Shown: positions 16,114-29,972 of the stretch, one piece after another
Position numbering within the stretch: position 1 is the stretch's first letter
Layout of the letters: every line of letters starts with the position of its first letter
IMG/VR virus record: IMGVR_UViG_3300022910_000004
Length of the DNA stretch: 32,547 nucleotides
From: a virus
Taxonomy: Duplodnaviria > Heunggongvirae > Uroviricota > Caudoviricetes
Strand: one strand, 5' to 3'
The notes under the pieces: model-generated
Seen by the model: only the letters and a program-made list of their open reading frames with translations
The model's database searches: none
What the model was told of the DNA's origin: nothing
Position numbers and translations under genes: made by a program

Positions 16114-17652
16114 TTAACGTATATTTAAAAGTGGGTTGTTATTAGTTAAATCAACTGATTTTATTCCTGATAAGAATCCACTTGGCATAGAGAATTTGGA
16201 AGCTAAAATAGAGTAACCAAGAGAACAACAGTCTACGAGATCATCGTGTCCAGACTCTCCGCCCTTTCTCTCACCTGTGAAAGCTTCTAACTCGTTGTAG
16301 AAAAATTCATTAGTGCCATAGGACTTATTCCAGAAATCTGTACCACAATTCTTGACGATTTCAATAACACCAATTTGAGCAGATGCAGCAAAAGGTCTAA
16401 AGCTTTGAAGCTTGCCTTCACCAGAACGTTGAATAGTGGTGGCAAAACCATTTTCATTTAATCTTCTAGCAAGCCTAACCGTTTCTGCTTTAGCCATTGG
16501 GTTAGGATCTTGGGGGAGGATGATGTCTACTTTATTTCCATCTCGCATTGCATTCTCTAAAATAAATTCTTCCCACATCCCAAAAGGAATACGAGTTCTG
16601 TTTACTTCAAGAATTACATAATTGCCTGTTTTTAATTTCCCAATTTTTACAGAAGCTGTATAGTCAGGGGAGCGGTTCATTTCATGGGGCAGGGTGCCAG
16701 CGAAATCGTAAGCTCTAACAATTCGGGTGAATTGATTATATGCAGGAGGATCTATTATCTCTGTCATTGTCTTTCTGTCAAAGTAGGAACTTGCTTCTTC
16801 TCTTACTTTCCAGTTTCCATACAACAGACGTTGCTTTTCTACGCCCCTTAAACCCTTAAGCCAAGCAACATATTTGGGGTTAACTTCTTGAACAATTTTA
16901 TTATCAAAAACGTTAGCACTGATAAACGTAAACGATAGAACATCTTTTGCTTCACAAGCAGATTTGTAAATAACTTCTTCTACAGAATCTCCCCAACAGA
17001 AATCACCTTCATTGTAAGTAAAGTAACGAATCAAACCGTCTTTACTTCTGTCTGGGGTTCCATCAGGATTAAGATAGGGCTCAACCCACTCTCTTAAGAA
17101 GTGATCTGCTAAAGGGTTACAAGTAAGTTTTAAGTGAGGTTCTATCGATGGGCATGAGGGATTTCTCATCCTACTCATAATGTACTGAATCATGAATTGA
17201 GTGAACTGTGTTGCTTCGTCTACAAGAAACAAATTTGCTTCTGTACCTTGCCAGTTTTCATGATCTTTTTCGTATTCAAAGTGTTTTAAATAAATTTCTG
17301 AGACTTGGTATTTTTTACCTTCTTCATCTCTTTTATAAAAAACGAATTTACCATCTTTTTCTTTCCAAACATAATCTTCGCCATATCGATATAATGAAGA
17401 GAATGTTCTGTGGCACTTGGTAAGAATACCACCAGCACCTTTTAACTGAGGTGTGGTTCTTCTTGTAATAACTCCAATAAAATTCTGTATCCAGATATAC
17501 TTTAAGAAATCTATTACACCAATCTCAGATTTACCTGATCCAGCAGCTCCTCCAAATAATGTTACGTCACATTTAGATGTTGTATAAAGCCACTGTCTTT
17601 TACTAATTGGTCTTGGAAATTTTTTCGTAACTTCTATAGTCATTATTATCAC
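16114..17652 (-). CDS. terL: Terminase large subunit (start GTG 17652 or ATG 17643)
   Basis: Walker A GGAAGSGKS, Walker B FLVDEATQF, RAYDFA and HDDLVD nuclease motifs. Confidence 0.95.
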   Translation of the reverse strand: MIIMTIEVTKKFPRPISKRQWLYTTSKCDVTLFGGAAGSGKSEIGVIDFLKYIWIQNFIGVITRRTTPQLKGAGGILTKCHRTFSSLYRYGEDYVWKEKDGKFVFYKRDEEGKKYQVSEIYLKHFEYEKDHENWQGTEANLFLVDEATQFTQFMIQYIMSRMRNPSCPSIEPHLKLTCNPLADHFLREWVEPYLNPDGTPDRSKDGLIRYFTYNEGDFCWGDSVEEVIYKSACEAKDVLSFTFISANVFDNKIVQEVNPKYVAWLKGLRGVEKQRLLYGNWKVREEASSYFDRKTMTEIIDPPAYNQFTRIVRAYDFAGTLPHEMNRSPDYTASVKIGKLKTGNYVILEVNRTRIPFGMWEEFILENAMRDGNKVDIILPQDPNPMAKAETVRLARRLNENGFATTIQRSGEGKLQSFRPFAASAQIGVIEIVKNCGTDFWNKSYGTNEFFYNELEAFTGERKGGESGHDDLVDCCSLGYSILASKFSMPSGFLSGIKSVDLTNNNPLLNIR

Positions 17653-17748
17653 TTACTAAATTGTAAAGTCGCCACTTCTTGCCATGCGATCATTTACTGG
17701 ACTGACATACTTCAGTCCTTCTCCACCTAGCGATTATTACTTTATCGC

Positions 17749-18345
17749 TTATTCTTCAGGATCTGACTCATATTCAAAGCTTTCGTCATCCCATTCAGAA
17801 TCATAGGCGGTGACATAATCAGCCACTGCTTTAGGACCACCAAACTCTTTGGCTACTTGTTGTGGATCTTCTTTTGGTATCAAACCATTTTCTTTTGATT
17901 CTTCTGTCTTTTTAAGCAATTCAAGTTTGCGTATCTTAGCTTCTTGTTCTGCCTTAAGAAGATTAGCCTCTTGAGTAATGACCCATTTAGCAATCTCAAC
18001 TCTGCGAGTAGGGACGGGGACATAACGAACCAATACTTCAACTTCTCTCATATCGGGAAGTATCAATATCTCGAAAGATGCACTAGAATCATTTGTAAGA
18101 ATTTCATGACGCTGATCTTCTGTACCTTTCCAAACTTCACGTTCTGGAACAAGGCCACCTTCGATAGCTTGTTTAACAATTTCAGCCGCAGGGTCTGTAA
18201 GATCAGACAGTTTACGTCTGACATTACCAAGGGCTCGGGGGGTTTTTATCACGCCAGCAGAAGTGGCTTTATCGGGGTTACTATGAAATTCTTTAAGGGC
18301 TTTCTTTTGTTTAGCTTTTTGTTCTGGCGTAAGTTTTGGTGCCAT
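17749..18345 (-). CDS. Putative terminase small subunit
   Basis: 198 aa immediately upstream of terL; basic N-terminus, acidic tail; assignment by position only. Confidence 0.5.
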   Translation of the reverse strand: MAPKLTPEQKAKQKKALKEFHSNPDKATSAGVIKTPRALGNVRRKLSDLTDPAAEIVKQAIEGGLVPEREVWKGTEDQRHEILTNDSSASFEILILPDMREVEVLVRYVPVPTRRVEIAKWVITQEANLLKAEQEAKIRKLELLKKTEESKENGLIPKEDPQQVAKEFGGPKAVADYVTAYDSEWDDESFEYESDPEE

Positions 18346-18361
18346 ACATTACCTTGGAAGA

Positions 18362-18439
18362 TGGTACTCTATCGGGGAGTCGAACCCCGTTTGACAGGTT
18401 GAAAACCTGTAGTCCTAACCAAACGTAGACGAATAGAGC
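18362..18439 (-). tRNA. tRNA-Glu(TTC)
   Basis: Cloverleaf, loop TTTTCAA, encoded CCA. Confidence 0.9.
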
Positions 18440-18449
18440 ATTTTAAAAA

Positions 18450-18524
18450 TGGTGGTAACAATTGGTATCGAACCAATCTATCAAGCTCTTCAGGCTTGCG
18501 CTAATCCATCTCAGCTATATTACC
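18450..18524 (-). tRNA. tRNA-Phe(GAA)
   Basis: Loop CTGAAGA, encoded CCA. Confidence 0.92.
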
Positions 18525-18530
18525 ATAATA

Positions 18531-18604
18531 TGGTGCTCAATGTGTGAATCGAACACACGACAGATGCTTACAAGGCAACTGTTATACCACTTAACTAATC
18601 GAGC
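18531..18604 (-). tRNA. tRNA-Thr(TGT)
   Basis: Loop CTTGTAA, one mismatch in the anticodon stem, CCA. Confidence 0.88.
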
Positions 18605-18606
18605 AT

Positions 18607-18682
18607 TGGCAACCCGTACTGGATTCGAACCAGTAACACCTAGATTCAAAGTCTAGTGCTCTACCAATTGAGCTAACAGGCT
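18607..18682 (-). tRNA. tRNA-Gln(TTG)
   Basis: Loop CTTTGAA, G73, CCA. Confidence 0.9.
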
Positions 18683-18691
18683 GATTAAACT

Positions 18692-18768
18692 TGGTGTGAC
18701 GTGTGATAATCGAAATCACATACTCCAGAGTCACATTCTGGATCTTTTCCGCTTAAGATAACGTCACC
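18692..18768 (-). tRNA. tRNA-His(GTG)
   Basis: Loop ATGTGAC; genomic G at -1 but discriminator A; CCA. Confidence 0.88.
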
Positions 18769-18774
18769 ACTGTT

Positions 18775-18849
18775 TGGTGGAACTGGTTGGATTTGAACCA
18801 ACATAAGTCGGCTTAAAAGGCCGATGATCTACCTGTGATCCACAATTCC
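18775..18849 (-). tRNA. tRNA-Lys(TTT)
   Basis: Loop CTTTTAA, CCA. Confidence 0.9.
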
Positions 18850-18856
18850 TTTAATT

Positions 18857-18930
18857 TGGCAGACCGTGTAAGAATCGAACTCACATCTCATGGTTTGGAG
18901 CCACGCATTCTACCACTAAACTAACGATCT
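18857..18930 (-). tRNA. tRNA-Trp(CCA)
   Basis: Loop CTCCAAA, G73, CCA. Confidence 0.9.
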
Positions 18931-18937
18931 AAAAATT

Positions 18938-19013
18938 TGGTACTTCTTGCTGGATTCGAACCAACCCCACAGAGTTCGTAGCTCTATATTCTATCCCAAT
19001 AAACTAAAGAAGT
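18938..19013 (-). tRNA. tRNA-Arg(ACG)
   Basis: Loop CTACGAA, CCA. Confidence 0.9.
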
Positions 19014-19014
19014 A

Positions 19015-19088
19015 TGGTACTCAGTGCTGGTAACGATCCAGCGTTTAACGCTTATCAAGCGTTTGTTCTACCATTGAACTAACCGAGT
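19015..19088 (-). tRNA. tRNA-Ile(GAT)
   Basis: Loop TTGATAA, CCA. Confidence 0.9.
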
Positions 19089-19100
19089 ATAATATTCATA

Positions 19101-19188
19101 TGGCGGAAAACAGAGAGCACGATTCTCATACGCTAGCACGTACAGACCGCTTAGCAGGCGGCTCCAGAACCCATCTGGTTTATTTTCC
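19101..19188 (-). tRNA. tRNA-Ser(GCT)
   Basis: Loop CTGCTAA, long variable arm, G73, CCA. Confidence 0.9.
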
Positions 19189-19192
19189 ATAT

Positions 19193-19269
19193 TGGTACGA
19201 AAGGTGGGACTTGAACCCACAAAACCTAGTTTCTAAGACTAGTATGTATGCCTATTCCATCACTCTCGC
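19193..19269 (-). tRNA. tRNA-Leu(TAG), short variable loop
   Basis: Loop CTTAGAA, 5-nt variable region, CCA. Confidence 0.88.
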
Positions 19270-19277
19270 ATTTAAAT

Positions 19278-19353
19278 TGGCGCCACTTATGGGTTTCGAT
19301 CCCATTACCTTACCCTTGACAGGGGTACGCTCTCCCAATTGAGCTAAAGCGGC
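19278..19353 (-). tRNA. tRNA-Asp(GTC)
   Basis: Loop CTGTCAA, G73, CCA. Confidence 0.92.
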
Positions 19354-19359
19354 TTAAAC

Positions 19360-19443
19360 TGGTGCGCAGGGGCGGAATTTGCACCACCACATCTCTCGAA
19401 GCTGATTTACAGTCAGGTGAGTTCACTCGTACTCAGCCTACGC
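19360..19443 (-). tRNA. tRNA-Tyr(GTA)
   Basis: Loop CTGTAAA, extended variable region, T-loop TGCAAAT, CCA. Confidence 0.88.
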
Positions 19444-19452
19444 ATTTAACTA

Positions 19453-19540
19453 TGGCGGAAAATAAAGGAGTCGAACCCTCAGCGCTCATCACACTGGCTA
19501 CGGTTTTCAAGACCGTTTGTGGCCACCCACGCTATCTTCC
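19453..19540 (-). tRNA. tRNA-Ser(TGA)
   Basis: Loop CTTGAAA, long variable arm, G73, CCA. Confidence 0.9.
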
Positions 19541-19545
19541 TAAAT

Positions 19546-19621
19546 TGGTGGAATAGGTGAGAATCGAACTCACCACAGGAAAGGTGCAAACCTCCCTCGC
19601 CCCCTTGGCACATGCTACCCC
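19546..19621 (-). tRNA. tRNA-Ala(TGC)
   Basis: Loop TTTGCAC, G3:U70 identity pair, CCA. Confidence 0.9.
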
Positions 19622-19632
19622 ATAACTATAAT

Positions 19633-19707
19633 TGGTAGCGGGAACCAGATTCGAACTGGTGATTTTCAGCTTATGAGACTGACGAGTTACCGCTTCTCTA
19701 TCCCGCT
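19633..19707 (-). tRNA. tRNA-Met(CAT), initiator-like body
   Basis: Loop CTCATAA; 5' AGCGGGATAGAG resembles fMet tRNA but has A1-U72 and lacks the three G-C anticodon-stem pairs. Confidence 0.85.
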
Positions 19708-19800
19708 ATTAATCCTGTGACTCTTTATAACCATTCATGGATTGGTAACTCCGAAGAGCTGGTCGTAACCCTTACAACTGGTCAAAGTTACTTTTAAATA

Positions 19801-19878
19801 TGGCTGATCACCTTGGAATCGAACCAAGCTCCATTCTGATTAACAGTCAGATGCTCACACCATGCTTGCTCGTGATCA
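19801..19878 (-). tRNA. tRNA-Asn(GTT)
   Basis: Loop CTGTTAA, G73, CCA. Confidence 0.92.
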
Positions 19879-19885
19879 ATAAATT

Positions 19886-19960
19886 TGGTCTATCCTGTAG
19901 GACTCGAACCTACGACTTCTCCGTTCCAAACAGAGCGACTTGCCTCTAGCCTAAAGATAG
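19886..19960 (-). tRNA. tRNA-Pro(TGG)
   Basis: Loop TTTGGAA, C1-G72, A73, CCA. Confidence 0.9.
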
Positions 19961-19995
19961 AAATGAATATCATATAATATTCGCTGTACATTCTA

Positions 19996-20024
19996 ATTAT
20001 ACTATCAATTTTAACTATTGTAAA
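19996..20024 (-). promoter_or_regulatory. Sigma70-type promoter driving the main tRNA block
   Basis: TTTACA-17 nt-TATAAT, ~35 nt upstream of tRNA-Pro. Confidence 0.75.
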
Positions 20025-20045
20025 GTTATTTTTTGATAAATATAA

Positions 20046-20237
20046 TCAATCATCAAAATTTGTTGGTTGTTTTACACCTTCTACAGCATACTGTAGAATA
20101 TATTCTTTCTCTTCTGGGATATTTATTGTATAAACTACCCCACGACATTCATGACAAAAATCCTCAGGAGTTCCATCATCTTTCTTCATTCTTAAATCAG
20201 ACCACGATAGGGCCGAATCACAGCACCGACATCTCAT
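20046..20237 (-). CDS. Small putative zinc-binding protein
   Basis: 63 aa; CRCC...FCHEC cysteine pairs, acidic tail; sits in a gap of the tRNA cluster. Confidence 0.65.
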   Translation of the reverse strand: MRCRCCDSALSWSDLRMKKDDGTPEDFCHECRGVVYTINIPEEKEYILQYAVEGVKQPTNFDD

Positions 20238-20272
20238 AACACACTCAGTCTAGCTTATGCTAGATTTATTAT

Positions 20273-20348
20273 TGGGGCAAGTAAAAGGGTTCGAACCTTT
20301 ATCTGGAACCAGATTGCTCCCGTCCTCTCCAAATTAGACGATACTTGC
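20273..20348 (-). ncRNA. Atypical tRNA-like RNA with a 6-nt anticodon loop
   Basis: Perfect GCAAGTA/TACTTGC acceptor, D arm, AAAGG-TTCGAAC-CCTTT T arm, C73-CCA; stem GGAGC/GTTCC closes loop AATCTG. Confidence 0.8.
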
Positions 20349-20356
20349 GTAATTCT

Positions 20357-20433
20357 TGGTGGGCCACCCAAGACTTGAACTTGAAACCTTCGACTTATGA
20401 GGTCGCTGCTCTAACCAGTTGAGCTAGAGGCCC
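20357..20433 (-). tRNA. tRNA(CAT), probably Ile2 (lysidine)
   Basis: Loop CTCATAA; C4-G69 and C5-G68 pairs as in TilS substrates. Confidence 0.8.
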
Positions 20434-20437
20434 TTTC

Positions 20438-20511
20438 TGGAGCCTGTGGTAGGAATCGAACCCACGTAAAAGGATTTGCAATCCCTCGCATGGCCACTCT
20501 GCCACACAGGC
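20438..20511 (-). tRNA. tRNA-Cys(GCA)
   Basis: Loop TTGCAAA, U73, CCA. Confidence 0.92.
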
Positions 20512-20516
20512 TTGTT

Positions 20517-20591
20517 TGGTGCGGGATTGGGGACTCGAACCCCAGACACCGACTTGGAAGGACGGCATGTTACCAACTACACTAATCACGC
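20517..20591 (-). tRNA. tRNA-Gly(TCC)
   Basis: Loop CTTCCAA, discriminator A, CCA. Confidence 0.88.
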
Positions 20592-20721
20592 ATTATACTA
20601 ATCAAAATAATTCTTACATTTTACATAAATAGCTGTGTCTGGACAGCTTGTTTCTTCACTGTAATCATATATGAAATATATTACACCAAAGAATGTAACA
20701 AGGGACACAATAAAACCTAGC

Positions 20722-20904
20722 TTACTCATCTAACATCCCTTTCAATACATCTACACCAATACCGGTCAGGGTAGAAATTGTGTATAACTCCAACCCATCA
20801 TTAATCAACTGAGTTAGTTGCTCTTTTGTAATGTCCTCCCCAGAAATCAGGGAGTCTCCAATACTAAGAGCATTACTAATTGATTTTGTAAAAAGATCAA
20901 ACAT
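20722..20904 (-). CDS. Small helical hypothetical protein
   Basis: 60 aa; start overlaps the stop of the TROVE-like gene (TAATG). Confidence 0.7.
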   Translation of the reverse strand: MFDLFTKSISNALSIGDSLISGEDITKEQLTQLINDGLELYTISTLTGIGVDVLKGMLDE

Positions 20905-22319
20905 TATAATGCATACCTCTCAATCATCACTGTTTCCAACATAACTTCTTCAGGATTAGAGGCTTTGCCTAAAACACTCTTCATGATAGAAGGACTATAA
21001 CCACTCACCATTGCTGTTCCTGTTTCGTGTTTGGTCACAGGCTTACTGGTGTTAGCCGCATTAAGATTCCAAAACACAATTTTAGGAATCTGATAGCCAG
21101 CAGCTTCAAATTCTTTCTTCATCATGTTAAAAGCAGTCACAGACTTTCCTTCGACATAATTGCAATTAAACTGCATATCACTCAAAATAACTAAAGTGGT
21201 GGGCATTTGTGAAGGATCTAAATTAACATCCTTTGCTGCATCTAGGATCAATTTAAAAGCAGCTTGAATATTAGTACTTCCACCCCAAGGGGCTTTAGAG
21301 ATTAAATCAAATCTTTGTTTTAAAGATCCTGCATCTATTTTTAATAGTCTTGGGCTAGACTCAAAGGTCATAAACACATCTTTAAAAATACCCTCTGAAC
21401 GACTGGCTATGTACCAACCCAGAGATATTGCAACATCAACACATTGTAAATATCGATCGCCACCAGCAGATTTATACATACTCTGAGAGACATCAATCAG
21501 TGGAAGAATACGTTCTTCACTACCTTCCATATAATTAGGAAGGGCATTCCACTGTTGTTCTGCTATCTCAGCATTACCTTGATAGACAGACTTATAAATG
21601 TCATGTGGGTATACGGCAGAAGCATGGATAGTAGTTTCACCTTTCTTAAGTGATTCTAAGTATTTACCATAACGTTCTGTAGCATTACGCCCAAAAGCTT
21701 TCTGATAGCGTGCAGAAGCAACAGAAGGGACCTTGTCAAACTCTATAGTATCCCATTCTTTTGCACACATACTCTGTTCAACAGTCTTACGACCTGCAAC
21801 AATGTACTTACGCCAATCGGCCTCTTTCTTGAAGCCCAGCATCTTACGAACTTTCTTTGCTGTATTGCCTTTAATAGGCACCCACTTAAAGGCCAAACCA
21901 TTGCCTTCTTGTAATTCTGTTTTATAAATGTGACTTGCAAAATCACTCATCTGAGGAATATTCTCAGATACCCACAAAAGGTCATCAAAACGACCAATTT
22001 CAGGGATTTTGGTAAGCAGGGTATTCAACGCTTGAATTATCTCAGCTTTACCTGCATTAGCATATGCAAATTTAAGTAGATTACGGAACAGTTGACGTTC
22101 CCCAGCTCCACCCCTAACATCACGTAACCACTGTAAGATACGCAATGCAACATCTTGATTCTCAATCAAGGCGTCTAAAAATTCTTTATCGATATTCTTC
22201 CCACGGCTAGCACCAGCCAAGTAGAATAGATCTAAGCATTTGGACAGGCTCGAAAAATGCGCCTTTGCTCCATTATCGGTTTTTGCTTGTGCATTAACCG
22301 CTTCAAATAATGACATCAT
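20904..22319 (-). CDS. TROVE/Ro60-like RNA-binding protein with vWA domain (DUF2828-like)
   Basis: LRDVRGGAGERQLF, IPEIGRFDDL, MIDAS-like LIDVSQSM, WGGSTN, ILSDMQF, FWNL, VSGYSPS; AGGAG 6 nt before ATG 22319, preferred over the track's GTG 22349. Confidence 0.85.
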   Translation of the reverse strand: MMSLFEAVNAQAKTDNGAKAHFSSLSKCLDLFYLAGASRGKNIDKEFLDALIENQDVALRILQWLRDVRGGAGERQLFRNLLKFAYANAGKAEIIQALNTLLTKIPEIGRFDDLLWVSENIPQMSDFASHIYKTELQEGNGLAFKWVPIKGNTAKKVRKMLGFKKEADWRKYIVAGRKTVEQSMCAKEWDTIEFDKVPSVASARYQKAFGRNATERYGKYLESLKKGETTIHASAVYPHDIYKSVYQGNAEIAEQQWNALPNYMEGSEERILPLIDVSQSMYKSAGGDRYLQCVDVAISLGWYIASRSEGIFKDVFMTFESSPRLLKIDAGSLKQRFDLISKAPWGGSTNIQAAFKLILDAAKDVNLDPSQMPTTLVILSDMQFNCNYVEGKSVTAFNMMKKEFEAAGYQIPKIVFWNLNAANTSKPVTKHETGTAMVSGYSPSIMKSVLGKASNPEEVMLETVMIERYAL

Positions 22320-22339
22320 AATAAACTCCTTAATAATTG

Positions 22340-22418
22340 ACAGAATCACTTGTTTGTGATGAGATCACAGTACTGGCAGCCGTGTACGGCTATAATTTTT
22401 TGTTGCTGAACTGATTCT
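22340..22418 (-). ncRNA. Y-RNA-like unit 4 (two internal hairpins)
   Basis: AAGA-ATCA-GTTCAGCAA...TGAT-TCTGT; inner stems AGCCG/CGGCT and TGTGAT/ATCACA. Confidence 0.65.
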
Positions 22419-22427
22419 TTAATTTAA

Positions 22428-22492
22428 ACAGACTGCATACTTTTAGTCGGACTTGTAGGTCTGATTATAGTAGGGTTTGCTGAAAGCAGTCT
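22428..22492 (-). ncRNA. Y-RNA-like unit 3
   Basis: AAGA-CTGC-TTTCAGCAA...GCAG-TCTGT. Confidence 0.65.
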
Positions 22493-22498
22493 TTCTTA

Positions 22499-22636
22499 AC
22501 AGAATGTATTATTACTTGTCTTTTGCTCTACCAACTGAGCTACATCCGAACGAAACGTTAGTCGCGATTTAACGGAAGACAGGACTCGAACCTGTGACCC
22601 AAAGTTTGGAATAGTAATTGTTGCTGAAAACATTCT
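22499..22636 (-). ncRNA. YrlA-like Y RNA with permuted tRNA module (unit 2)
   Basis: AAGA-ATGT-TTTCAGCAA...GGGTC-ACAGG-TTCGAGT-CCTGT (T arm), loop-closed acceptor-like stem, TA-GCTC-AGTTGGTA-GAGC (D arm)...ACAT-TCTGT; no anticodon loop, no CCA. Confidence 0.8.
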
Positions 22637-22651
22637 TTAATTAGTAGAGAA

Positions 22652-22704
22652 ACAGAAAACTCTTGGTTTCATAAGCCTGAAAGTTTGGTTGCTGAAAGTT
22701 TTCT
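22652..22704 (-). ncRNA. Y-RNA-like unit 1
   Basis: AAGA-AAAC-TTTCAGCAA...GTTT-TCTGT; inner TTTCA/TGAAA hairpin. Confidence 0.65.
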
Positions 22705-22718
22705 TAATCTCTATATTC

Positions 22719-22753
22719 ATTATAACACACTTGGATATACTAAAAGCAAGTGT
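22719..22753 (-). promoter_or_regulatory. Extended -10 promoter for the Y-RNA-like array
   Basis: TGT-TATAAT at 22719-22727, possible TTGCTT -35 at 19 nt; overlapped by the inverted repeat ACACTTG-N13-CAAGTGT. Confidence 0.65.
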
Positions 22754-22899
22754 TTTCTTAATCTTTTGTAAATATATTGTTTATTTTACAATATTCTCAC
22801 TCTTTTACTTGAAACTCGTAATCAACTGACTCAGTTTACCCTAGTTTTTCTCTGTACGCAATAACATTATCTAAATAATCATAAACATTAGCTATTAGT

Positions 22900-23187
22900 C
22901 TAGACCTTAATAATTCCTCTCTTTAAAGACTTAAGTAATTCTGAGTAAGATTCACTACTAGGTTTATACTTCTTGCGTAAAGCGGACTCTTTCCACAATG
23001 TAACTATTCTTGTTTGACCATCTGGAATAACAAAACCTAAATCGTATCCCCAAGACTTTTCTGTAATTACAAAATCTTTATAGAAAGATTCGGGTGGAAC
23101 CACTGCAACTATAGTATATTCCCCATTATATTGAGAATGGGCTTTACTTTCAAGGATTATCTCTTCCCCAACATGAAATTTATTCAT
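22900..23187 (-). CDS. Hypothetical protein (small beta-barrel-like)
   Basis: 95 aa, AGGAG RBS. Confidence 0.7.
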   Translation of the reverse strand: MNKFHVGEEIILESKAHSQYNGEYTIVAVVPPESFYKDFVITEKSWGYDLGFVIPDGQTRIVTLWKESALRKKYKPSSESYSELLKSLKRGIIKV

Positions 23188-23195
23188 AGTAACTC

Positions 23196-23366
23196 CTATA
23201 TAGTGTATTTTTGCACTGGAATAGGCTTAGTGTAGTTGGGTGTATATATTTTGTCAACAGAATACTCTTTAAAAGAACGAAATCTTGAAGGTACAGGACA
23301 ATTAAAAGTGACGGCCAAGTGTAAATTCTTACTCTTATTACAATTCTTACATAAATACTGTTCCAT
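23196..23366 (-). CDS. Small hypothetical protein with CxxC (56 aa)
   Basis: Manual: MEQYLCKNCNKSKNLHLAVTFNCPVPS...KYTI*; TAGGAG RBS. Confidence 0.65.
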   Translation of the reverse strand: MEQYLCKNCNKSKNLHLAVTFNCPVPSRFRSFKEYSVDKIYTPNYTKPIPVQKYTI

Positions 23367-23454
23367 ATATTACTCCTAAGTATAATTCAATTAGGCTGGT
23401 GGATAAATTCTGGATAATACTAACCCATAGCCATACCATAATAGTATTAGCCAT
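23347..23454 (-). CDS. Possible 35 aa hydrophobic peptide
   Basis: Manual: MANTIMVWLWVSIIQNLSTSLIELYLGVIYGTVFM*; GAGGA RBS; overlaps the next ORF by 20 nt. Confidence 0.4.
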   Translation of the reverse strand: MANTIMVWLWVSIIQNLSTSLIELYLGVIYGTVFM

Positions 23455-23487
23455 TAGGTTAGTATCCTCAGAATTCAATTAGGCTGG
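23384..23487. repeat. 16-bp direct repeat pair
   Basis: AATTCAATTAGGCTGG at 23384-23399 and 23472-23487. Confidence 0.85.
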
Positions 23488-23791
23488 AGCCATAAGATTC
23501 TCTGCGCTACAGGCAGCATACTATAACTAGTACGGGATAATGTAAAGTGATTTATATCTTTACATCACAAGGGGCTTCCTCTATAATCAGAGTCCATGCT
23601 ACTCCCCCTTAAGCCATTTTATAATGGCCACTAACAAGTATTGTGTCTTGCATCTTCTTACACTTTAGGATTAGCCGGTGAGTGATGCGTTAAGCTTGAC
23701 ATATCTCTCTAATCCGTAGGACCTGATTCTCAGGAACAATAGGTGTAATGTCTTTACGTTAGAACACCTAGAAATATTAATCTCTTTATCC

Positions 23792-23821
23792 ATTATACAG
23801 TATTGGACTCTCAAAAGTCAA
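23792..23821 (-). promoter_or_regulatory. Leftward sigma70-type promoter
   Basis: TTGACT-18 nt-TATAAT. Confidence 0.7.
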
Positions 23822-23845
23822 TATCACAAATAAATAGGTAAATAT

Positions 23846-23885
23846 GTCTTAACCCTATCAATTTAAGACTTCAGTGTGATATAAT
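23846..23885 (+). promoter_or_regulatory. Rightward extended -10 promoter
   Basis: TGA-TATAAT at 23877-23885; inverted repeat GTCTTAA-N10-TTAAGAC upstream. Confidence 0.6.
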
Positions 23886-23922
23886 GGTAATGCATTTTAA
23901 AATTTACTTAGGATAAAACATT

Positions 23923-24135
23923 ATGGATGCAAAAGTTAGAGCAGAAGAATTATTTAACAATGTAATGGGGCAGGTTAAAGAGGCTAGAGACAACTTAGCT
24001 AAAAGAATGCTGGAAAAAGGTATGACCCCAGAAACACATTATATCAAAGATAATTTTGAAGAAATTGTAAATGGTACTACACTAGAGTATATTTGCACAC
24101 CCGAACCAAAAACAAAGGAGAAAACTAATGGCTAA
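23923..24135 (+). CDS. Hypothetical protein
   Basis: 70 aa, AGGA RBS, first gene of the rightward unit. Confidence 0.75.
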   Translation: MDAKVRAEELFNNVMGQVKEARDNLAKRMLEKGMTPETHYIKDNFEEIVNGTTLEYICTPEPKTKEKTNG

Positions 24136-24793
24136 AAAACCTAATAAAGCAAAAGAAGAAACTGTTGAAAATACTATAATCACACAAGAAGTAGTTGAAG
24201 AAACAGAATCAACTGAAGAAGTGGTCTCAGAAGCTCCTACAGAGCCTGTAGAGAAAGTTAAAAAAGAAATACGTATCCACGGAACCAATCTTAATACCTT
24301 AGTCTCAGAGGTGATGTATGCGGCTTTCTTGGGTGGAGAATTAGTACCAAGAATTCTTCCAAGAATTTCCTCCTTACCTTTTACCGTAAGAATGCTTATC
24401 AGCGAAGATAAGTATGAAGAGTACGTTACTAAGTCTGCACAACCCCGTTGGACTGAAGGTGTAGAATATAACAGAGTGGTAGTGACGGCTCCTGATCCTC
24501 TCGTGTTTATTCGAGGCATAATTGCCGCAGGTAAGAGAGGTGCTGTACTACCCCCAAGAAAAGCCGTTCGTGTAGGCGGACCCTATCAGGCAGAATTGGC
24601 TATGAGAAACCCTATTGCTGAAACTCCTACTGTTCATGTTGGACCTAAAAAAATAGCCTATACTAAAGAAGAACTTGAGCAATACGACATTCATGACCTA
24701 AAATTAATTGGTGCCACGATGTCCTTGACAGGTAGAGGCAAAGCTGCTTTAATTAAGGTTATCTTAGACAAACAGAAGGAGTCAGAAGTATGA
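24128..24793 (+). CDS. Hypothetical protein with C-terminal HeH/LEM-like helical domain
   Basis: 221 aa; acidic N-terminus; YTKEELEQ...DLKLIG...GRGKAALIKVIL. Confidence 0.7.
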   Translation: MAKKPNKAKEETVENTIITQEVVEETESTEEVVSEAPTEPVEKVKKEIRIHGTNLNTLVSEVMYAAFLGGELVPRILPRISSLPFTVRMLISEDKYEEYVTKSAQPRWTEGVEYNRVVVTAPDPLVFIRGIIAAGKRGAVLPPRKAVRVGGPYQAELAMRNPIAETPTVHVGPKKIAYTKEELEQYDIHDLKLIGATMSLTGRGKAALIKVILDKQKESEV

Positions 24794-25028: not shown

Positions 25029-25796
25029 ATGAAGAATGCTAATAACAAAAGAAATACAAGAAAATCAAAGATCGAAAATGGTGTTGAGAAAGTAACGAAA
25101 GAAAAATTTCAGCACGAAAGGGAAGAAGAAATAAAAGCTAAACCTATTAAACCTATGAATGCAAAACAAAAGGTTTATAAAGAGTTGATAGAAGATTTCT
25201 CCATCCCTACAGTATTAGCAACTGGATATGCAGGGACTAGCAAGACTTGGATGCCAACTGCAATAGCTTGTGATTGGCTTAGACTAGGCAAAATTAATCG
25301 CCTAATTTTTACAAGACCTAATATATCTAATAGTAAATCATTAGGATTTTTTACTGGCTCTTCTATAGAAAAATTATCCCAATGGCTAATGCCTGTAATA
25401 GATATTCTAAAAGAACGCCTTGGTGCAAATAATTTAGACCTTCTTATTAAAAATGGTGATATAGTCTTCCTTCCCTTAGAAGTAGTTAAGGGGTATTCAG
25501 CAAATAATTGTGTTTTTATTTGCGATGAGGCGGAAGACTTGTCTATAGATGAGGCCAAAAAACTTGTAACTCGCTTAGGGCAGAATGCAAAAATGATTTT
25601 GGCAGGGGATATTTCTCAAAGTGAACTTAAAGATGCAAGTGGCTTACGCTATCTTATAAATTTAGCAAGTAAACATGAAAATCTTTCCTTGGGTACTGTG
25701 GACTTTAATGAAGTATCAGATATAGTAAGATCCGAAGCTGTAAAGAATTGGATCATAGCTTTTGAAGAGGATAGAGTTAATGGCAAACAAAAATAA
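25029..25796 (+). CDS. phoH: PhoH-family ATPase
   Basis: GYAGTSKT, LIFTRP, GFFTGS, ICDEAEDL, LVTRLGQNAKMILAGDISQ, IVRS. Confidence 0.92.
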   Translation: MKNANNKRNTRKSKIENGVEKVTKEKFQHEREEEIKAKPIKPMNAKQKVYKELIEDFSIPTVLATGYAGTSKTWMPTAIACDWLRLGKINRLIFTRPNISNSKSLGFFTGSSIEKLSQWLMPVIDILKERLGANNLDLLIKNGDIVFLPLEVVKGYSANNCVFICDEAEDLSIDEAKKLVTRLGQNAKMILAGDISQSELKDASGLRYLINLASKHENLSLGTVDFNEVSDIVRSEAVKNWIIAFEEDRVNGKQK

Positions 25797-26109
25797 AGGC
25801 AAGGGGGATAATGTCAGACCGATTAGAGAAGGTGTAGAGATATCGAAAGATCCTCTCGAACCAGTAGAGGACTTGGTGGTTATCACAGGTCTTCTCCATA
25901 AGTTAGCTTTAGAAGGCAGATTAAGAGATTTAGCATACGCGGGAATTACCACAGATATAAACGAAACTAGAATCTGTGGAATTCTGGGGGAAAATTTTAA
26001 CTTCAGTTTGATGGATACATTATTAAGACATCTTACACTAATGCATTATGATGGCATAGTATTTCCCCATCTTACAGGAATTATGTTGGAGGGTTTTGAT
26101 GATGAATAG
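25780..26109 (+). CDS. Hypothetical protein
   Basis: ATG 25780 with GAGGA RBS, preferred over the track start at 25762. Confidence 0.7.
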   Translation: MANKNKGKGDNVRPIREGVEISKDPLEPVEDLVVITGLLHKLALEGRLRDLAYAGITTDINETRICGILGENFNFSLMDTLLRHLTLMHYDGIVFPHLTGIMLEGFDDE

Positions 26110-26401
26110 ACTACAGTATCTATTAAACAAACTATCAGAGGAGGCCAGTGAAATTGTGCAGATATCCCAGAAGACAGCTCAATTTGGTCTTAATGAAGTT
26201 TATGATGATGGAAAAAATAATTTAAGCAATCGTGAAAGATGCCACGCAGAAATAGACGATTTGCTTGGGATAATCTCCCTTTTGAATGATGAGTTTGATT
26301 TCTGTTATGAGCCAGACAGAGAAAAGATTGAACAGAAGAAAGACAAAACCAATAGATATTATAAATACTCTAAAGAGTTAGGGATGGTATCGGATGAGTA
26401 A
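26099..26401 (+). CDS. MazG-like nucleotide pyrophosphohydrolase
   Basis: LSEEASEIVQ...FG...EIDDLLG (EExxE...ExxD pattern). Confidence 0.6.
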   Translation: MMNRLQYLLNKLSEEASEIVQISQKTAQFGLNEVYDDGKNNLSNRERCHAEIDDLLGIISLLNDEFDFCYEPDREKIEQKKDKTNRYYKYSKELGMVSDE

Positions 26402-26519
26402 GTTTGAGGTAGAACTGTTAGAAGAGGAAGATAATTCTGCTTCTGATGCAGATATAATTGAAATGATTAAAGACACAATGAGGAATACGTTAGGTTGTAC
26501 TGATCCAGATTGGGAGTAG
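26394..26519 (+). CDS. Small acidic hypothetical protein (41 aa)
   Basis: Manual: MSKFEVELLEEEDNSASD...PDWE*; fills the gap between neighbours. Confidence 0.55.
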   Translation: MSKFEVELLEEEDNSASDADIIEMIKDTMRNTLGCTDPDWE

Positions 26520-26523
26520 TCTT

Positions 26524-26775
26524 ATGTCTAAGAGTATAAAAACTTCTGTAGTAAGTTTTGATGATTTTAATGATTTAGATTTTGTTTCACCAAGTCGATG
26601 GTTTATCTTTACCTCTATGAATGAGTATTTATTTATACATGTTAGAGATCGCCAAGTTGCTCAAGATTATGTTGATGCAGAATATGGAAAAGGTAGATAC
26701 AAAATTAGAACAGTAAAAGTTATAAAAAGTGGTAAGGGGTTAACTGTAAGTGGATCTGAGACAAGGAGAAAGTAA
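26524..26775 (+). CDS. Hypothetical protein
   Basis: 83 aa, GGGAG RBS. Confidence 0.7.
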   Translation: MSKSIKTSVVSFDDFNDLDFVSPSRWFIFTSMNEYLFIHVRDRQVAQDYVDAEYGKGRYKIRTVKVIKSGKGLTVSGSETRRK

Positions 26776-27267
26776 ATTAAATTTAAATATGAATATGCTT
26801 ACATGGATATGGCAGAACGCTTTGGACAAACATCTGAGGCGGTTAGGTTAAAAGTTGGAGCCCTAATTGTTCACGAGACTCTTGGGGTAATTGCTGAAGG
26901 TGTTAATGGAATGCCTCCAGACTGGCCTACAGAGGTCTGCGAAGAAAGGAAATATTTCGATGGTGGTGGTTGGATAAATTTTGATGAAAGTTTATACCCT
27001 TACATCGATTCAGATGGAGAACACTATGCACTAGTAACTAAACCTGAATGTCGTCATGCAGAAATAGCAGCCTTAGAAAAATTATGGAAAAAAGCTGAAA
27101 CGGCAGAAGGTGCCATGATGTTTGTCTCACACAGCCCTTGTGTGGCATGTGCCATCAAGATCAAGACAGCAGGCATAGTAAAGGTTTATTACAGACATGC
27201 TTATAGAGAGTCCTCTGGAATAGACTTTCTTAAGCGAAATAAAATTGAAGTTGTAAAATTAAATTAG
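26776..27267 (+). CDS. dCMP deaminase, probable ATT start
   Basis: HAE and SPCVAC zinc motifs, RLKVGALIV; AAGGAG 7 nt before in-frame ATT 26776; no RBS before ATG 26803. Confidence 0.88.
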   Translation: MKFKYEYAYMDMAERFGQTSEAVRLKVGALIVHETLGVIAEGVNGMPPDWPTEVCEERKYFDGGGWINFDESLYPYIDSDGEHYALVTKPECRHAEIAALEKLWKKAETAEGAMMFVSHSPCVACAIKIKTAGIVKVYYRHAYRESSGIDFLKRNKIEVVKLN

Positions 27268-27276
27268 GAGGATTAT

Positions 27277-28566
27277 ATGAGTAACTACACGGCAATTATT
27301 GCCAAGATCGATAATACACTACCAATAGTTGGGGCGGATAAAATCCAAATTGCCAAGGTTCTTGGTGAGAGTGTGGTGGTAAGTAAAGATGCGAAAATTG
27401 GTGATATTGGAGTATTTTTCTGTGCAGGTACTCAACTCTCCACAGAATACTGCCATCACAACAATTTGTTTAGGGATGCGTCAAAAAATTATTACACCAG
27501 CGAGTCAGGCTTCTTTGAGGATAGTCGTAGAGTTCGTGCTCAGCCTTTTCTTAAAGTTAAGTCAGAGGGATATTTTGCTGACTTATCATCTTTGCGTTTT
27601 GCTGGAGACTTTTCTAAGCTTAAGCTTGGTGATAAATTTGAAGAATTGAATGGTGTTAAGATTTGTAATAAGTATCTCAATGAGAAAGCCATTAAGGCCA
27701 TTAAAGAACAAAAGAATAAACCAGCCAAAAAGAAACTTATTCCATTCTTTAAAGAGCATGTTGAAAGCGAACAATATAAGTACAACACCCATAAACTTGA
27801 GGTTGGTAATGTTATCTCTATCCAATCTAAACGTCATGGCACATCTGGTCGTTACGGATATTTAAGCTCTATTAAAAAACTTCCTAAGTGGAAACAATGG
27901 ATTAATAAAATCATACCTGTATTCCCTACAGAGGAATATGAATATGTTGTGGGTACGCGTAGAACAGTTTTGAATGACCCAGAGAAAGAAGGCTTTCATG
28001 GCAGTGAAGCTTATCGTTATGAAGTTATGGAACAATTGAAACCTTATCTAAGTAAGGGCATGACTATTTATGTTGAAATTGTTGGCTATGTTAATGGTAA
28101 GTCTGTTATGCCTTCCCATTCTACTAAAGACTTAAAGAACAAAGAATTTAGTAAGAAATATGGTGATACAGTTGTTTATAAATATGGTTGCCCAGAAGGC
28201 ACATACAAGTTCCATGTTTATCGCGTAACCTTAACAACTGAAGATGGTAATTCTATTGATCTAACTCAACAACAACTAGTTCGTTGGTGTGCTGATCGTG
28301 GATTAGACCCAGCACATGATCTTGTTCCGCCATTCGTTTATGACGGGGATGTTGAGAAGTTGAACGCCTTGGTTGAGGAATTAACAGAGCGTCCTGATAC
28401 GCTTACAGAAGATTATCATGATCCAAGCCACCCAAGCGAGGGTGTTATTGTTCGTGTAGATCGTTGGACTCAAACTCCATTATTTTTAAAGTCTAAATCT
28501 TATGTCTTTAAAGTTATGGAAGGAATTGCTTCTGAGAAAGAAGTAGATATTGAGGAGGTATCATAA
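27277..28566 (+). CDS. ATP-dependent RNA ligase (DRB0094/Rnl2-like)
   Basis: Motif I KRHGTS, YVEIVG, EGVIVR, KSKS; N-terminal IAKID...GADKIQIAKV OB-like domain. Confidence 0.85.
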   Translation: MSNYTAIIAKIDNTLPIVGADKIQIAKVLGESVVVSKDAKIGDIGVFFCAGTQLSTEYCHHNNLFRDASKNYYTSESGFFEDSRRVRAQPFLKVKSEGYFADLSSLRFAGDFSKLKLGDKFEELNGVKICNKYLNEKAIKAIKEQKNKPAKKKLIPFFKEHVESEQYKYNTHKLEVGNVISIQSKRHGTSGRYGYLSSIKKLPKWKQWINKIIPVFPTEEYEYVVGTRRTVLNDPEKEGFHGSEAYRYEVMEQLKPYLSKGMTIYVEIVGYVNGKSVMPSHSTKDLKNKEFSKKYGDTVVYKYGCPEGTYKFHVYRVTLTTEDGNSIDLTQQQLVRWCADRGLDPAHDLVPPFVYDGDVEKLNALVEELTERPDTLTEDYHDPSHPSEGVIVRVDRWTQTPLFLKSKSYVFKVMEGIASEKEVDIEEVS

Positions 28567-28844
28567 TGAAAAATATACTTATCTTGATTATTTTGGGACT
28601 AAGCCTCTCAGGTTGCCTTAAAAATAAAGATATTGATGTAGTTGAATATGCAACAGTTGTGGAACTTGGGCTTTGTAATGCCAACTCTTGTGTTGTAAAA
28701 GTTAGAGATAATGTAAAAGGAACTGAGGAATATTGGCAATCTCATGGCCCTGCAATGATTGGGATGCAATTATACAGAAGTTGTTATGTAAAGCCTAGTG
28801 GAGATAAATGGTGTTTTGATGCCTCTCAGGTTCTGAGGAGTTGA
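28566..28844 (+). CDS. Lipoprotein
   Basis: Signal peptide MKNILILIILGL with lipobox LSGC; Cys-rich mature part. Confidence 0.7.
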   Translation: MKNILILIILGLSLSGCLKNKDIDVVEYATVVELGLCNANSCVVKVRDNVKGTEEYWQSHGPAMIGMQLYRSCYVKPSGDKWCFDASQVLRS

Positions 28845-28845
28845 T

Positions 28846-29094
28846 ATGAGCATACCTTGCATACAACTAGAAGTTCACTGGAATGAAGAGGCAGCGGTTC
28901 CTTGCCGATCTACTGTAGGCGATGGTACAAATCTACAAAACGAAGACATGTTTAATATTATTAAAATAGGTTTTGATGTATACGGGGGAATCCCTGTATA
29001 CCTTGTAGAAGAAAATATCACCATACGTTTAATCAATAGGGCTTTGATAATTGGACAAAAACATTATAAGGAGAAAGTTGAATGCCAAAAATGA
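28846..29094 (+). CDS. Hypothetical protein
   Basis: 82 aa, GAGGAG RBS. Confidence 0.65.
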   Translation: MSIPCIQLEVHWNEEAAVPCRSTVGDGTNLQNEDMFNIIKIGFDVYGGIPVYLVEENITIRLINRALIIGQKHYKEKVECQK

Positions 29095-29972
29095 TATTAA
29101 CTTGTGGCATTAGTGCCTCTGGTAAAACTTCGTGGGCTAATGAATATTGCAAGATCAATTCTAACTGGGTAAATATAAACAGGGATACTGCAAGATTTAT
29201 TCTCTTCTGTGATGGAGTAGAAGATTGGGGTTTATATAAATTTACTAAGGCCAGAGAAAAAGCTGTTTCGGATAGTTGTGAAAATTTATGGAAGGCTTCC
29301 GTTCATTTTGGTGAAAATGTTATTATCTCTGATACTAACCTCAACCCAAAGACACAAGCTATGTGGAAGCAACGAGCGGACGCCGCTGGGTACGAGTTTG
29401 AAATTAAGTATTTTGAGATAAGTCTTGAAGAGGCATGGAAACGTAACGAGCGGCGCCCTAACCCTGTTAGACGTGATGTTATTACAGAGCAATGGCCTAA
29501 GTGGTTGGCTATTACGGGGCGTAAACGTTATACACCTACTGGTGATAAACCTGAAATACTTCTTTGTGATATTGATGGTACTATTGCTAAAATGTATGAT
29601 AGGGGTCCATTTGATTGGATGAAGGTAGGGCAAGATCTACCAAGAAAAAAGATTATAAATCTGATTGAAGCTTATGCTTATAGTGGAGATTATGATGTAA
29701 TGTTTCTATCTGGTAGGGATAGTGTTTGCCGTTGTATTACAGCAGATTGGCTTTGTGATAACACCACTGTTTATAGCGGCAATAATTTCTTAGCTATGCG
29801 TCCACAAGGGGATATGCGTAAAGACTCTATTGTGAAAGAAGAATTGTTTTGGGAAATTACAAAAACTTATGATGTTGTGGCTGTATTTGATGATCGCCCT
29901 CAAGTAGTAAGAATGTGGAAAGACCTTGGACTTACTGTTATTGATGTAAGCGAAGGTTATCAAGAATTTTAA
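29082..29972 (+). CDS. pseT: Polynucleotide 5'-kinase/3'-phosphatase
   Basis: P-loop GISASGKT, INRD, HAD motif DIDGT, FLSGR, MRPQGDMRKD, FDDRPQVV. Confidence 0.93.
   Translation: MPKMILTCGISASGKTSWANEYCKINSNWVNINRDTARFILFCDGVEDWGLYKFTKAREKAVSDSCENLWKASVHFGENVIISDTNLNPKTQAMWKQRADAAGYEFEIKYFEISLEEAWKRNERRPNPVRRDVITEQWPKWLAITGRKRYTPTGDKPEILLCDIDGTIAKMYDRGPFDWMKVGQDLPRKKIINLIEAYAYSGDYDVMFLSGRDSVCRCITADWLCDNTTVYSGNNFLAMRPQGDMRKDSIVKEELFWEITKTYDVVAVFDDRPQVVRMWKDLGLTVIDVSEGYQEF

Follow-up and report, generated by a model that had tools for sequence, protein, structure and literature searches.

The DNA analysed here (the window) is a stretch of 32,547 nucleotides (nt) from a virus of the Caudoviricetes, held as IMG/VR record IMGVR_UViG_3300022910_000004. 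Its minus strand carries an array of four short units, U1 to U4, which share a paired terminal element, termed the handle, and are followed directly by a gene for a 471-amino-acid (aa) protein resembling the Y RNA-binding protein Ro60. The array and gene, in the direction of reading, comprise the following features.

22749-22719, minus strand: promoter-like site, read by eye, with TTGCTT at 22749-22744, a 19-nt spacer and an extended −10 element, TGtTATAAT, at 22727-22719.
22705-22652, minus strand: U1, 54 nt; handle AAG-AAAAC / GUUUU-CUGU with UUU-CAGCAA; the interior is a single hairpin of 5 base pairs (bp).
22637-22499, minus strand: U2, 139 nt; the common handle, a second 6-bp stem and a predicted circularly permuted tRNA-like domain.
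22493-22428, minus strand: U3, 66 nt; handle AAG-ACUGC / GCAGU-CUGU with UUU-CAGCAA; weakly structured interior.
22419-22340, minus strand: U4, 80 nt; handle AAG-AAUCA / UGAUU-CUGU with GUU-CAGCAA; the interior is two hairpins.
22319-20904, minus strand: gene for the 471-aa Ro60-like protein, with a helical-repeat N-terminal part (DUF2828) and a vWA domain (DUF7788).

Direct reading of positions 22100-22900 placed the four units head to tail on the minus strand. Each consists of AAGA-N4-(U/G)UU-CAGCAA, a variable interior and N4'-UCUGU, corresponding in DNA to a start of AAGA-N4-(T/G)TTCAGCAA and an end of N4'-TCTGT. The N4/N4' pairs are AAAC/GUUU in U1, AUGU/ACAU in U2, CUGC/GCAG in U3 and AUCA/UGAU in U4. 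An earlier description made from the letters of this DNA (the sequence-only reading) had reported four tandem minus-strand units with complementary N4 and N4', and all four pairs were re-read as it gave them. Its count of units also held, while its lengths of 53, 138, 65 and 79 nt were each one base short, and the AU-rich linkers measured 14, 5 and 8 nt rather than the 6 to 15 nt it had assigned. The terminal helix extends over 7 bp (AGA plus N4 paired with N4' plus UCU), with a single 5' A and a 3' GU left unpaired, and was retained in all four units in single-sequence folds.

The Ro60-like gene starts with an ATG at 22319, 20 nt past U4, and is preceded by a Shine-Dalgarno sequence, AAGGAG, at 22331-22326. 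No terminator-like site was detected by a terminator scan of the minus strand between U4 and this ATG. On the plus strand, the complement of the first hairpin of U4 together with a T run (22378-22391) scored as terminator-like, and no converging plus-strand gene lies nearby. The sequence-only reading had placed a promoter just upstream of the array; the site at 22719-22749 is plausible by eye as a promoter that starts transcription a few bases ahead of U1, but it was absent from the output of a consensus promoter scan, which missed it because of the long (19-nt) spacer. An 8-mer, AAGAAAAC, which also forms the 5' strand of the U1 handle, recurs on the minus strand at 22752-22759, just upstream of the promoter-like site, and is not followed by CAGCAA.

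The statistical reality of the handle was assessed with a strict descriptor, which specified a 7-bp stem with at most one G-U pair, exactly 3 nt, CAGCAA, an interior of at most 260 nt, the complementary strand and a G. On the minus strand of the window this descriptor matched at the four units only. Both strands of the window and of 24 related loci (16 IMG/VR contigs and 8 named phages; 175 kilobases [kb] in all) yielded 51 matches, whereas 50 shuffles gave 1.04 on average and never more than 3. A looser descriptor with free G-U pairs gave 304 matches against 65 in shuffles; this version was too noisy and was dropped, and the strict version was, therefore, utilized.

A covariance model, R1, was constructed from a seed of 14 short trimmed units representing 8 phage lineages; alignment of 19 units with MAFFT had misplaced the 3' ends, and the trimmed seed was used instead. 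Searching positions 17600-24200 without filters, R1 detected U3 (45.3 bits), U1 (40.6 bits), U4 (19.8 bits) and part of U2 (15.7 bits) and nothing else, so that no extra units were present in the gaps of the tRNA array that lies within these positions. Covariation was evident within the seed: all seven stem pairs were changed on both sides, double-changed cells numbered 42 as compared to 10.3 in shuffles, and slid controls paired at 36 to 44%. The features held constant across lineages were outer pairs of A-U (sometimes U-A) and then G-C, a spacer that was mostly GUU or UUA, an invariant CAGCAA and a G(UU) after the stem.

The protein encoded downstream matched Pfam DUF7788 (7.9e-45) and DUF2828 (1.4e-25), while Pfam TROVE gave no match at E values up to 0.01. 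It falls in PHROG 850, annotated as 'RNA-binding protein', and has no relatives in the PDB that are detectable by sequence. An AlphaFold2 model built from a 9-sequence alignment was of moderate confidence (predicted local distance difference test, 69; predicted template modelling score, 0.67) and showed helices in the N-terminal part, with a vWA domain at the C-terminal end. When this model was compared with the PDB using Foldseek, the top 13 matches were all Ro60/TROVE proteins, aligned over the full length with E values of 2.5e-9 to 1.4e-4 and template modelling (TM) scores of 0.43 to 0.51, and included the Ro60 of Thermus phage phiLo, Rsr of D. radiodurans and the Ro60 proteins of Xenopus and human. 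The best Swiss-Prot structure matches were the Ro60 proteins of frog, Deinococcus, mouse, human and worm, along with Tetrahymena telomerase p80. Residues of the metal-ion-dependent adhesion site (D276-x-S278-x-S280, T349 and D381) were invariant among 9 aligned relatives. Identity to Ro60 is only about 15%, and the predicted structure places the protein within the Ro60 fold class as a divergent form, distinct from canonical Ro60. The sequence-only reading had described a TROVE/vWA gene downstream of the units; the Ro60 fold and the vWA domain are borne out, while the Pfam domains are DUF2828 and DUF7788 and not TROVE.

The DUF2828 branch comprises more than 7,000 protein clusters and extends to ascomycetes, mucoromycetes, a chytrid, poppy and Acetabularia; a Rhizopus homologue is labelled 'TROVE domain-containing protein' in UniRef. 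One metagenomic member of 1045 aa (P0122) has a 2'-5' RNA ligase (2H phosphoesterase) domain fused to DUF2828 and DUF7788. In another (P0121), the DUF2828 and DUF7788 module is joined to a RecQ helicase, a junction that may stem from gene calling.

The interiors of the units were examined for relationships to known RNAs. Comparison with the Rfam YrlA model (RF02553), as suggested in the sequence-only reading, showed that U2 matches the whole model (1-114) with 35.8 bits and an E value of 3.9e-6, below the gathering score of 69. The order of elements in this domain is a 4-bp helix resembling an anticodon stem, a variable loop, a T arm (22600-22579), an acceptor-like stem with a hypervariable closing loop (22575-22544) and a D arm (22542-22524). 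Ordinary tRNAs of other organisms, found on metagenome contigs, carry sequences that match both arms exactly or with one change, and since these tRNAs have the arms in the normal order, D and then T, the permutation of U2 was confirmed. Judged on sequence, U2 is a YrlA-type circularly permuted tRNA elbow, as in bacterial Y RNAs. The middle of the three units of mycobacteriophage LeBron also matches YrlA over the whole model, with 39.8 bits. Each bacterial species has, as a rule, at least one tRNA-like Y RNA (PMC4201824), and both U2 and the LeBron unit conform to this. Interiors had been read as structured modules in all four units; clear structure was found in U2 and in U4, whose fold had a z-score of −2.9 (0 of 200 shuffles were as stable), and not in U1 or U3.

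A close natural variant of the array is present on a 1,396-nt contig. All four handles and both arms of U2 are unchanged in this variant, while the closing loop of the acceptor-like stem of U2 accounts for 16 of the 19 gap letters and for 4 of the 8 listed substitutions. A 3-nt insertion at 22632 merely doubles a GAA in the flank, with the stem unaffected. Intactness of the handles in this variant is not significant on its own, due to the small number of changes. In close relatives, CAGCAA units of about 100 nt (L013, 247-346; L015, 551-648; L010, 431-528; and L009, 203-300) enclose tRNA-like sequence in the normal, unpermuted order, scoring 30 to 42 bits on the Rfam tRNA model. In Cronobacter phage S13 (L017, 4396-4638), a CAGCAA unit is immediately preceded by two genes annotated as 'tRNAs', 121 and 113 nt long (tRNA-Ser and tRNA-OTHER). 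These score 56.9 and 40.9 bits on the Rfam tRNA model over unusually long spans and could be insert-bearing tRNAs or additional tRNA-like cargo.

A tblastn search with the 471-aa protein detected relatives in 710 phage records, while no DNA-level relatives of the window were found in the phage collection. Among sequencing runs, DNA contigs were listed only for a leaf-litter metagenome, which is probably the source, and for a rhizosphere metagenome. The sequence-only reading had proposed searching upstream of DUF2828/TROVE genes with a covariance model of the stem, and the handle was found to recur in distant phages, as follows.

Salmonella phage GEC_vB_BS (Felix O1-like): 4 units, downstream of the gene, amid tRNA genes.
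Campylobacter phage F357: 2 units, upstream of the gene.
Mycobacteriophage LeBron: 3 units, downstream of the gene.
Listeria phage A511: 3 units, upstream of the gene.
Staphylococcus phage CF9: 3 units, downstream of the gene.
Cronobacter phage S13: 1 unit, downstream of the gene.

Among the strict units in the 24 loci, 43 were located on the strand of the gene and outside it, 2 were inside the gene and 1 was on the opposite strand, and in most loci the units abut the DUF2828 gene at distances of 19 to 306 nt. The position relative to the gene varied: units are downstream in the Felix O1-like phage, LeBron, CF9 and four IMG/VR contigs, and elsewhere they may be 1 to 2 kb upstream or about 10 kb away. 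Phages nt-1 and Aeh1 had no unit within 2.5 kb of the DUF2828 gene. Model searches of the whole genomes of nt-1, Aeh1 and S13 (180 to 250 kb) gave 1, 2 and 3 matches, respectively, all on the strand of the gene and approximately 8 to 11 kb from it. The occurrence of the handle in genomes that lack the gene was another point raised by the sequence-only reading. In the tRNA-rich genomes of T4, T5 and Bxz1 (447 kb), no handle match was better than an E value of 0.75, and a search that included a positive control detected no DUF2828 gene, so that these phages are without either.

The surroundings of the array in the window are rich in genes for tRNAs and RNA repair, as listed here.

20591-18362, minus strand: 19 tRNA genes, detected with ARAGORN and the Rfam tRNA model, directly downstream of the Ro60-like gene.
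27277-28566, plus strand: RNA ligase, identified with PHROG and Pfam.
29082-29972, plus strand: polynucleotide kinase/phosphatase, identified with PHROG and Pfam.

The tRNA array probably belongs to the same RNA island as the units. The RNA ligase and the polynucleotide kinase/phosphatase (assigned from PHROG 968 and 505 and from Pfam HAD_PNKP and AAA_33) form the classic tRNA-repair pair and are 5 to 7 kb away. They are part of a plus-strand segment (25029-29972) encoding a PhoH-like ATPase, a dCMP deaminase, the RNA ligase and the polynucleotide kinase/phosphatase, a T4-style tRNA-repair set which is divergent from the island of the Ro-like gene and tRNAs. Listeria phage A511 has an RtcB ligase near its DUF2828 gene. 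At the head of the tRNA array in the window, ARAGORN reported a 'tRNA-???' with a two-base anticodon (tc) at 20273-20348 on the minus strand; this element falls below the Rfam tRNA gathering score and may be degenerate or tRNA-like. A 313-nt gap in the array contains a minus-strand open reading frame of 63 aa (20046-20237) that is Cys rich (CxxC...CxxC, zinc-ribbon-like) and is followed by a TTTACA-17-TATAAT promoter-like site at approximately 20030-19990.

The sequence-only reading had proposed that a single Ro-like protein is loaded with RNAs that share a handle and differ in payload. This is the best-supported interpretation because the protein has a full-length Ro60 fold, U2 matches YrlA and the handle travels with the gene and is missing from the control genomes. 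The four units are, in our judgement, probably the RNA subunits of a phage Ro60-like ribonucleoprotein, with a common handle and differing payloads. In such a particle, transcription would start at the promoter-like site at about 22720-22750, would continue through the units as the leader of the Ro-like gene and might extend into the tRNA array. The units would then be cut out at the AU-rich linkers, in the manner of YrlA and YrlB of M. smegmatis, which are cut from a single precursor upstream of rsr (PMC4201824). The DUF2828/DUF7788 ring would bind the handle, recognizing the terminal 7-bp helix together with the unpaired NNN-CAGCAA beside it and the G(U) at the 3' end. The variable interior would constitute the payload, a mimic of the tRNA elbow in U2 and small hairpins in U1, U3 and U4, and could tether the ring to factors or substrates such as exoribonucleases or enzymes of tRNA processing or repair. 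The role of the particle would probably be in RNA or tRNA surveillance, in repair or in counter-defence during infection.

A number of points weigh against this interpretation. None of the four units contains the canonical Ro-binding motif (GNCGAA N0-1 G or GGUCCGA); as the protein also fails to match Pfam TROVE, binding of the handle by analogy with Ro60 is an assumption. Pairing of the stems in 100% of units is partly by construction, and the stem statistics are partly circular since complementary strands were a requirement of the descriptor used to gather the units. That requirement has no bearing on the enrichment, on the strand bias or on the adjacency to the gene. The interiors of U1 and U3 fold no better or only marginally better than shuffles (z-scores of −1.3 and −2.0), and one natural substitution in the variant contig disrupts a predicted interior pair of U3. 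We infer transcription and processing of the units, their binding by the protein and their cellular role from the DNA. Linkage to the tRNA island and linkage to the protein are, moreover, not fully separated, as the units are always in or beside tRNA clusters.

This last point underlies the most serious alternative, which is that the units are real small RNAs of a tRNA island that act without the DUF2828 protein, as ligands of another binder, as decoys or as processing substrates, and that their nearness to the gene results from sharing the island. Units do often sit among tRNA genes, those of nt-1, Aeh1 and S13 are 8 to 11 kb from the gene, and the look-alike Class I RNA of Dictyostelium (described below) binds an RRM protein, Rnp1A (PMC7919456). 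However, T4, T5 and Bxz1 have tRNA clusters and neither the RNAs nor the gene, in most loci the units abut the gene, including loci such as those of LeBron and CF9 with no tRNA in between, and the fold of the protein is that of an established binder of Y RNAs, which together make this explanation unlikely. It is quite unlikely that the units are instead cis elements of the leader of the Ro-like mRNA, serving as autoregulatory sites, stabilizers or processing signals. The location of the array between promoter and start codon, with no terminator and with U4 ending 20 nt before the ATG, is as expected for a leader, but a tRNA-like payload is not, and the explanation is disfavoured because in other phages the units are downstream of the gene or distant from it. 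That the units are DNA-level repeats (a mobile element or recombination sites) or a chance occurrence, as tandem short inverted repeats in an AT-rich spacer might suggest, is very improbable because of the covariation, with stems that differ yet stay complementary in a way not expected from selection on DNA identity, and the strand bias of 43 to 1, in addition to an abundance about 50-fold above shuffles.

The RNA closest to the phage handle in sequence and layout is the Class I RNA of social amoebae (Kjellin et al. 2021, PMC7919456). Class I RNAs start with AAG and end in CUGU, with a short covarying stem, an 11-nt CCUUACAGCAA after the 5' strand of that stem and an interior that varies; they are 42 to 65 nt in length, with many paralogues that differ in their interiors (PMC7919456). 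The units of the window have AAG, a 7-bp stem, (U/G)UUCAGCAA and CUGU, and those of relatives have UUACAGCAA. The curated D. discoideum form is G-UUGAC-CUUA-CAGCAA...GUCAAC-UG (PMC7919456), in which the spacer is 4 nt (CUUA) as opposed to 3 nt in the phages. When the window and the phage units were scanned, no Rfam family reached its gathering score on the CAGCAA handle; for 7 short units, from three phages, the best non-tRNA family was RF01414, which aligned end to end with 15 to 26 bits. U1 and U3 each scored 18.5 bits with this model and the best phage unit scored 26.2 bits, equivalent to an E value of 0.005 over 4,227 families, relative to a gathering score of 41.5. Class I genes have a DUSE promoter element about 60 nt upstream, in a dictyostelid host (PMC7919456), a feature that is inapplicable to a phage of bacterial type, which instead has a sigma-70-like promoter-like site.

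It is possible, although doubtful, that a single ancient family unites the CAGCAA-handle RNAs of phages with the Class I RNAs and that its cognate protein is the DUF2828/DUF7788 branch of the Ro60 superfamily. Class I RNAs were reported to be unique to Dictyostelia, and their sole demonstrated binder is Rnp1A (PMC7919456). A homology search with a profile of the phage proteins retrieved only metagenomic phage relatives and no dictyostelid protein; a search from a fungal DUF2828 member found none of Dictyostelium-like composition among the best 150 of 5,567 matches; and papers on RNP1A and the supplements of Kjellin et al. name no vWA or DUF2828 protein. Were a common origin true, the Class I RNAs would not have been invented by dictyostelids but would form a class akin to Y RNAs, and similar RNAs would be expected in other eukaryotes with DUF2828 proteins. 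Supplemental Table S4 of Kjellin et al. contains Arabidopsis candidates with a stem, (A/C)UUA-CAGCAA, the complementary strand and UG, among them ath_can_1 with a covariance model score of 40 and ath_can_4 with a score of 27, which the authors dismissed as too few (PMC7919456). Since plants encode DUF2828 proteins, these candidates may merit re-examination.

Particles of Ro60 and Y RNA occur in animals, in about 250 bacteria and in a few phages. To our knowledge, those known always involve the canonical protein and the canonical motif. A pairing of the CAGCAA handle with DUF2828 was described neither in the literature searched nor in Rfam; a full-text search for 'DUF2828' returned unrelated papers only, and the papers on phage Ro60 that were consulted (among them PMC11482910 and PMC12135203) do not describe it. 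As far as was found, this pairing of RNA and protein is both widespread and undescribed. It would represent a second branch of Ro60/Y-RNA particles with its own RNA handle, apparently far larger in phages and inclusive of well-studied groups, such as the Felix O1-like phages, Listeria phage A511 and mycobacteriophage cluster L, in which the RNAs are unannotated between tRNA genes. DUF2828 thereby gains a testable function, and likely RNA cofactors can be named for a protein reported to counter the Ppl defence (Bas63 gp130, see below). The pairing also points to the display of tRNA-like cargo on a common handle within islands of tRNA and RNA-repair genes and, for the orphan Class I RNAs of social amoebae, provides a first concrete proposal as to where they came from and which protein is their partner.

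Among the known systems, gp130 of the Felix O1-like phage Bas63 is reported to have a Ro60-like structure, to be encoded just upstream of a stretch of tRNA genes and to counter the Ppl defence (preprint, PMC11482910). This layout is that of the DUF2828 gene in 251 Felix O1-like records, and we infer from gene order that gp130 is the DUF2828 gene. The authors of that study guessed that some of the annotated tRNAs of Bas63 are Y RNAs and did not mention the CAGCAA units between tRNAs (PMC11482910).

The bacterial and phage Ro60 (Rsr) systems with YrlA and YrlB (Chen et al. 2014, PMC4201824; RF02553) are similar to the system of the window in having a ring protein composed of HEAT-like repeats and a vWA domain, at least two small RNAs beside the gene and on the same strand, and paired RNA ends that carry the protein-binding site, which is a prediction for the handle. 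One RNA in each system has a permuted tRNA-like domain, and a precursor located upstream of the gene can be processed, as would by analogy be the case here. The differences reside in the protein, which here is of the DUF2828/DUF7788 type with about 15% identity and no Pfam TROVE match, and in the handle, which is a 7-bp stem with NNN-CAGCAA and CUGU in place of GNCGAA N0-1 G. The Ro-binding motif of the known systems is GGUCCGA in animals and GNCGAA N0-1 G in bacteria (PMC4201824), and Bxz1, a phage with a canonical Ro60, has no match to the CAGCAA handle.

Phage-encoded Ro60 proteins with Y RNAs are already known from mycobacteriophages and others (PMC4201824) and from Thermus phage phiLo (PMC12135203). 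The phiLo system (Nucleic Acids Research 2025, PMC12135203; PDB 9KOP and 9L5Y) likewise consists of a phage ring protein with two Y-like RNAs, Yrl1 and Yrl2, encoded just upstream, and phiLo Ro60, which is proposed to recruit host PNPase (PMC12135203), is the closest structure to the model of the 471-aa protein (E value of 2.5e-9; TM score of 0.51). In phiLo, however, the protein is a canonical Ro60 and the two RNAs have a CGAA motif in an internal bulge, whereas the array described here comprises four RNAs with a different motif.

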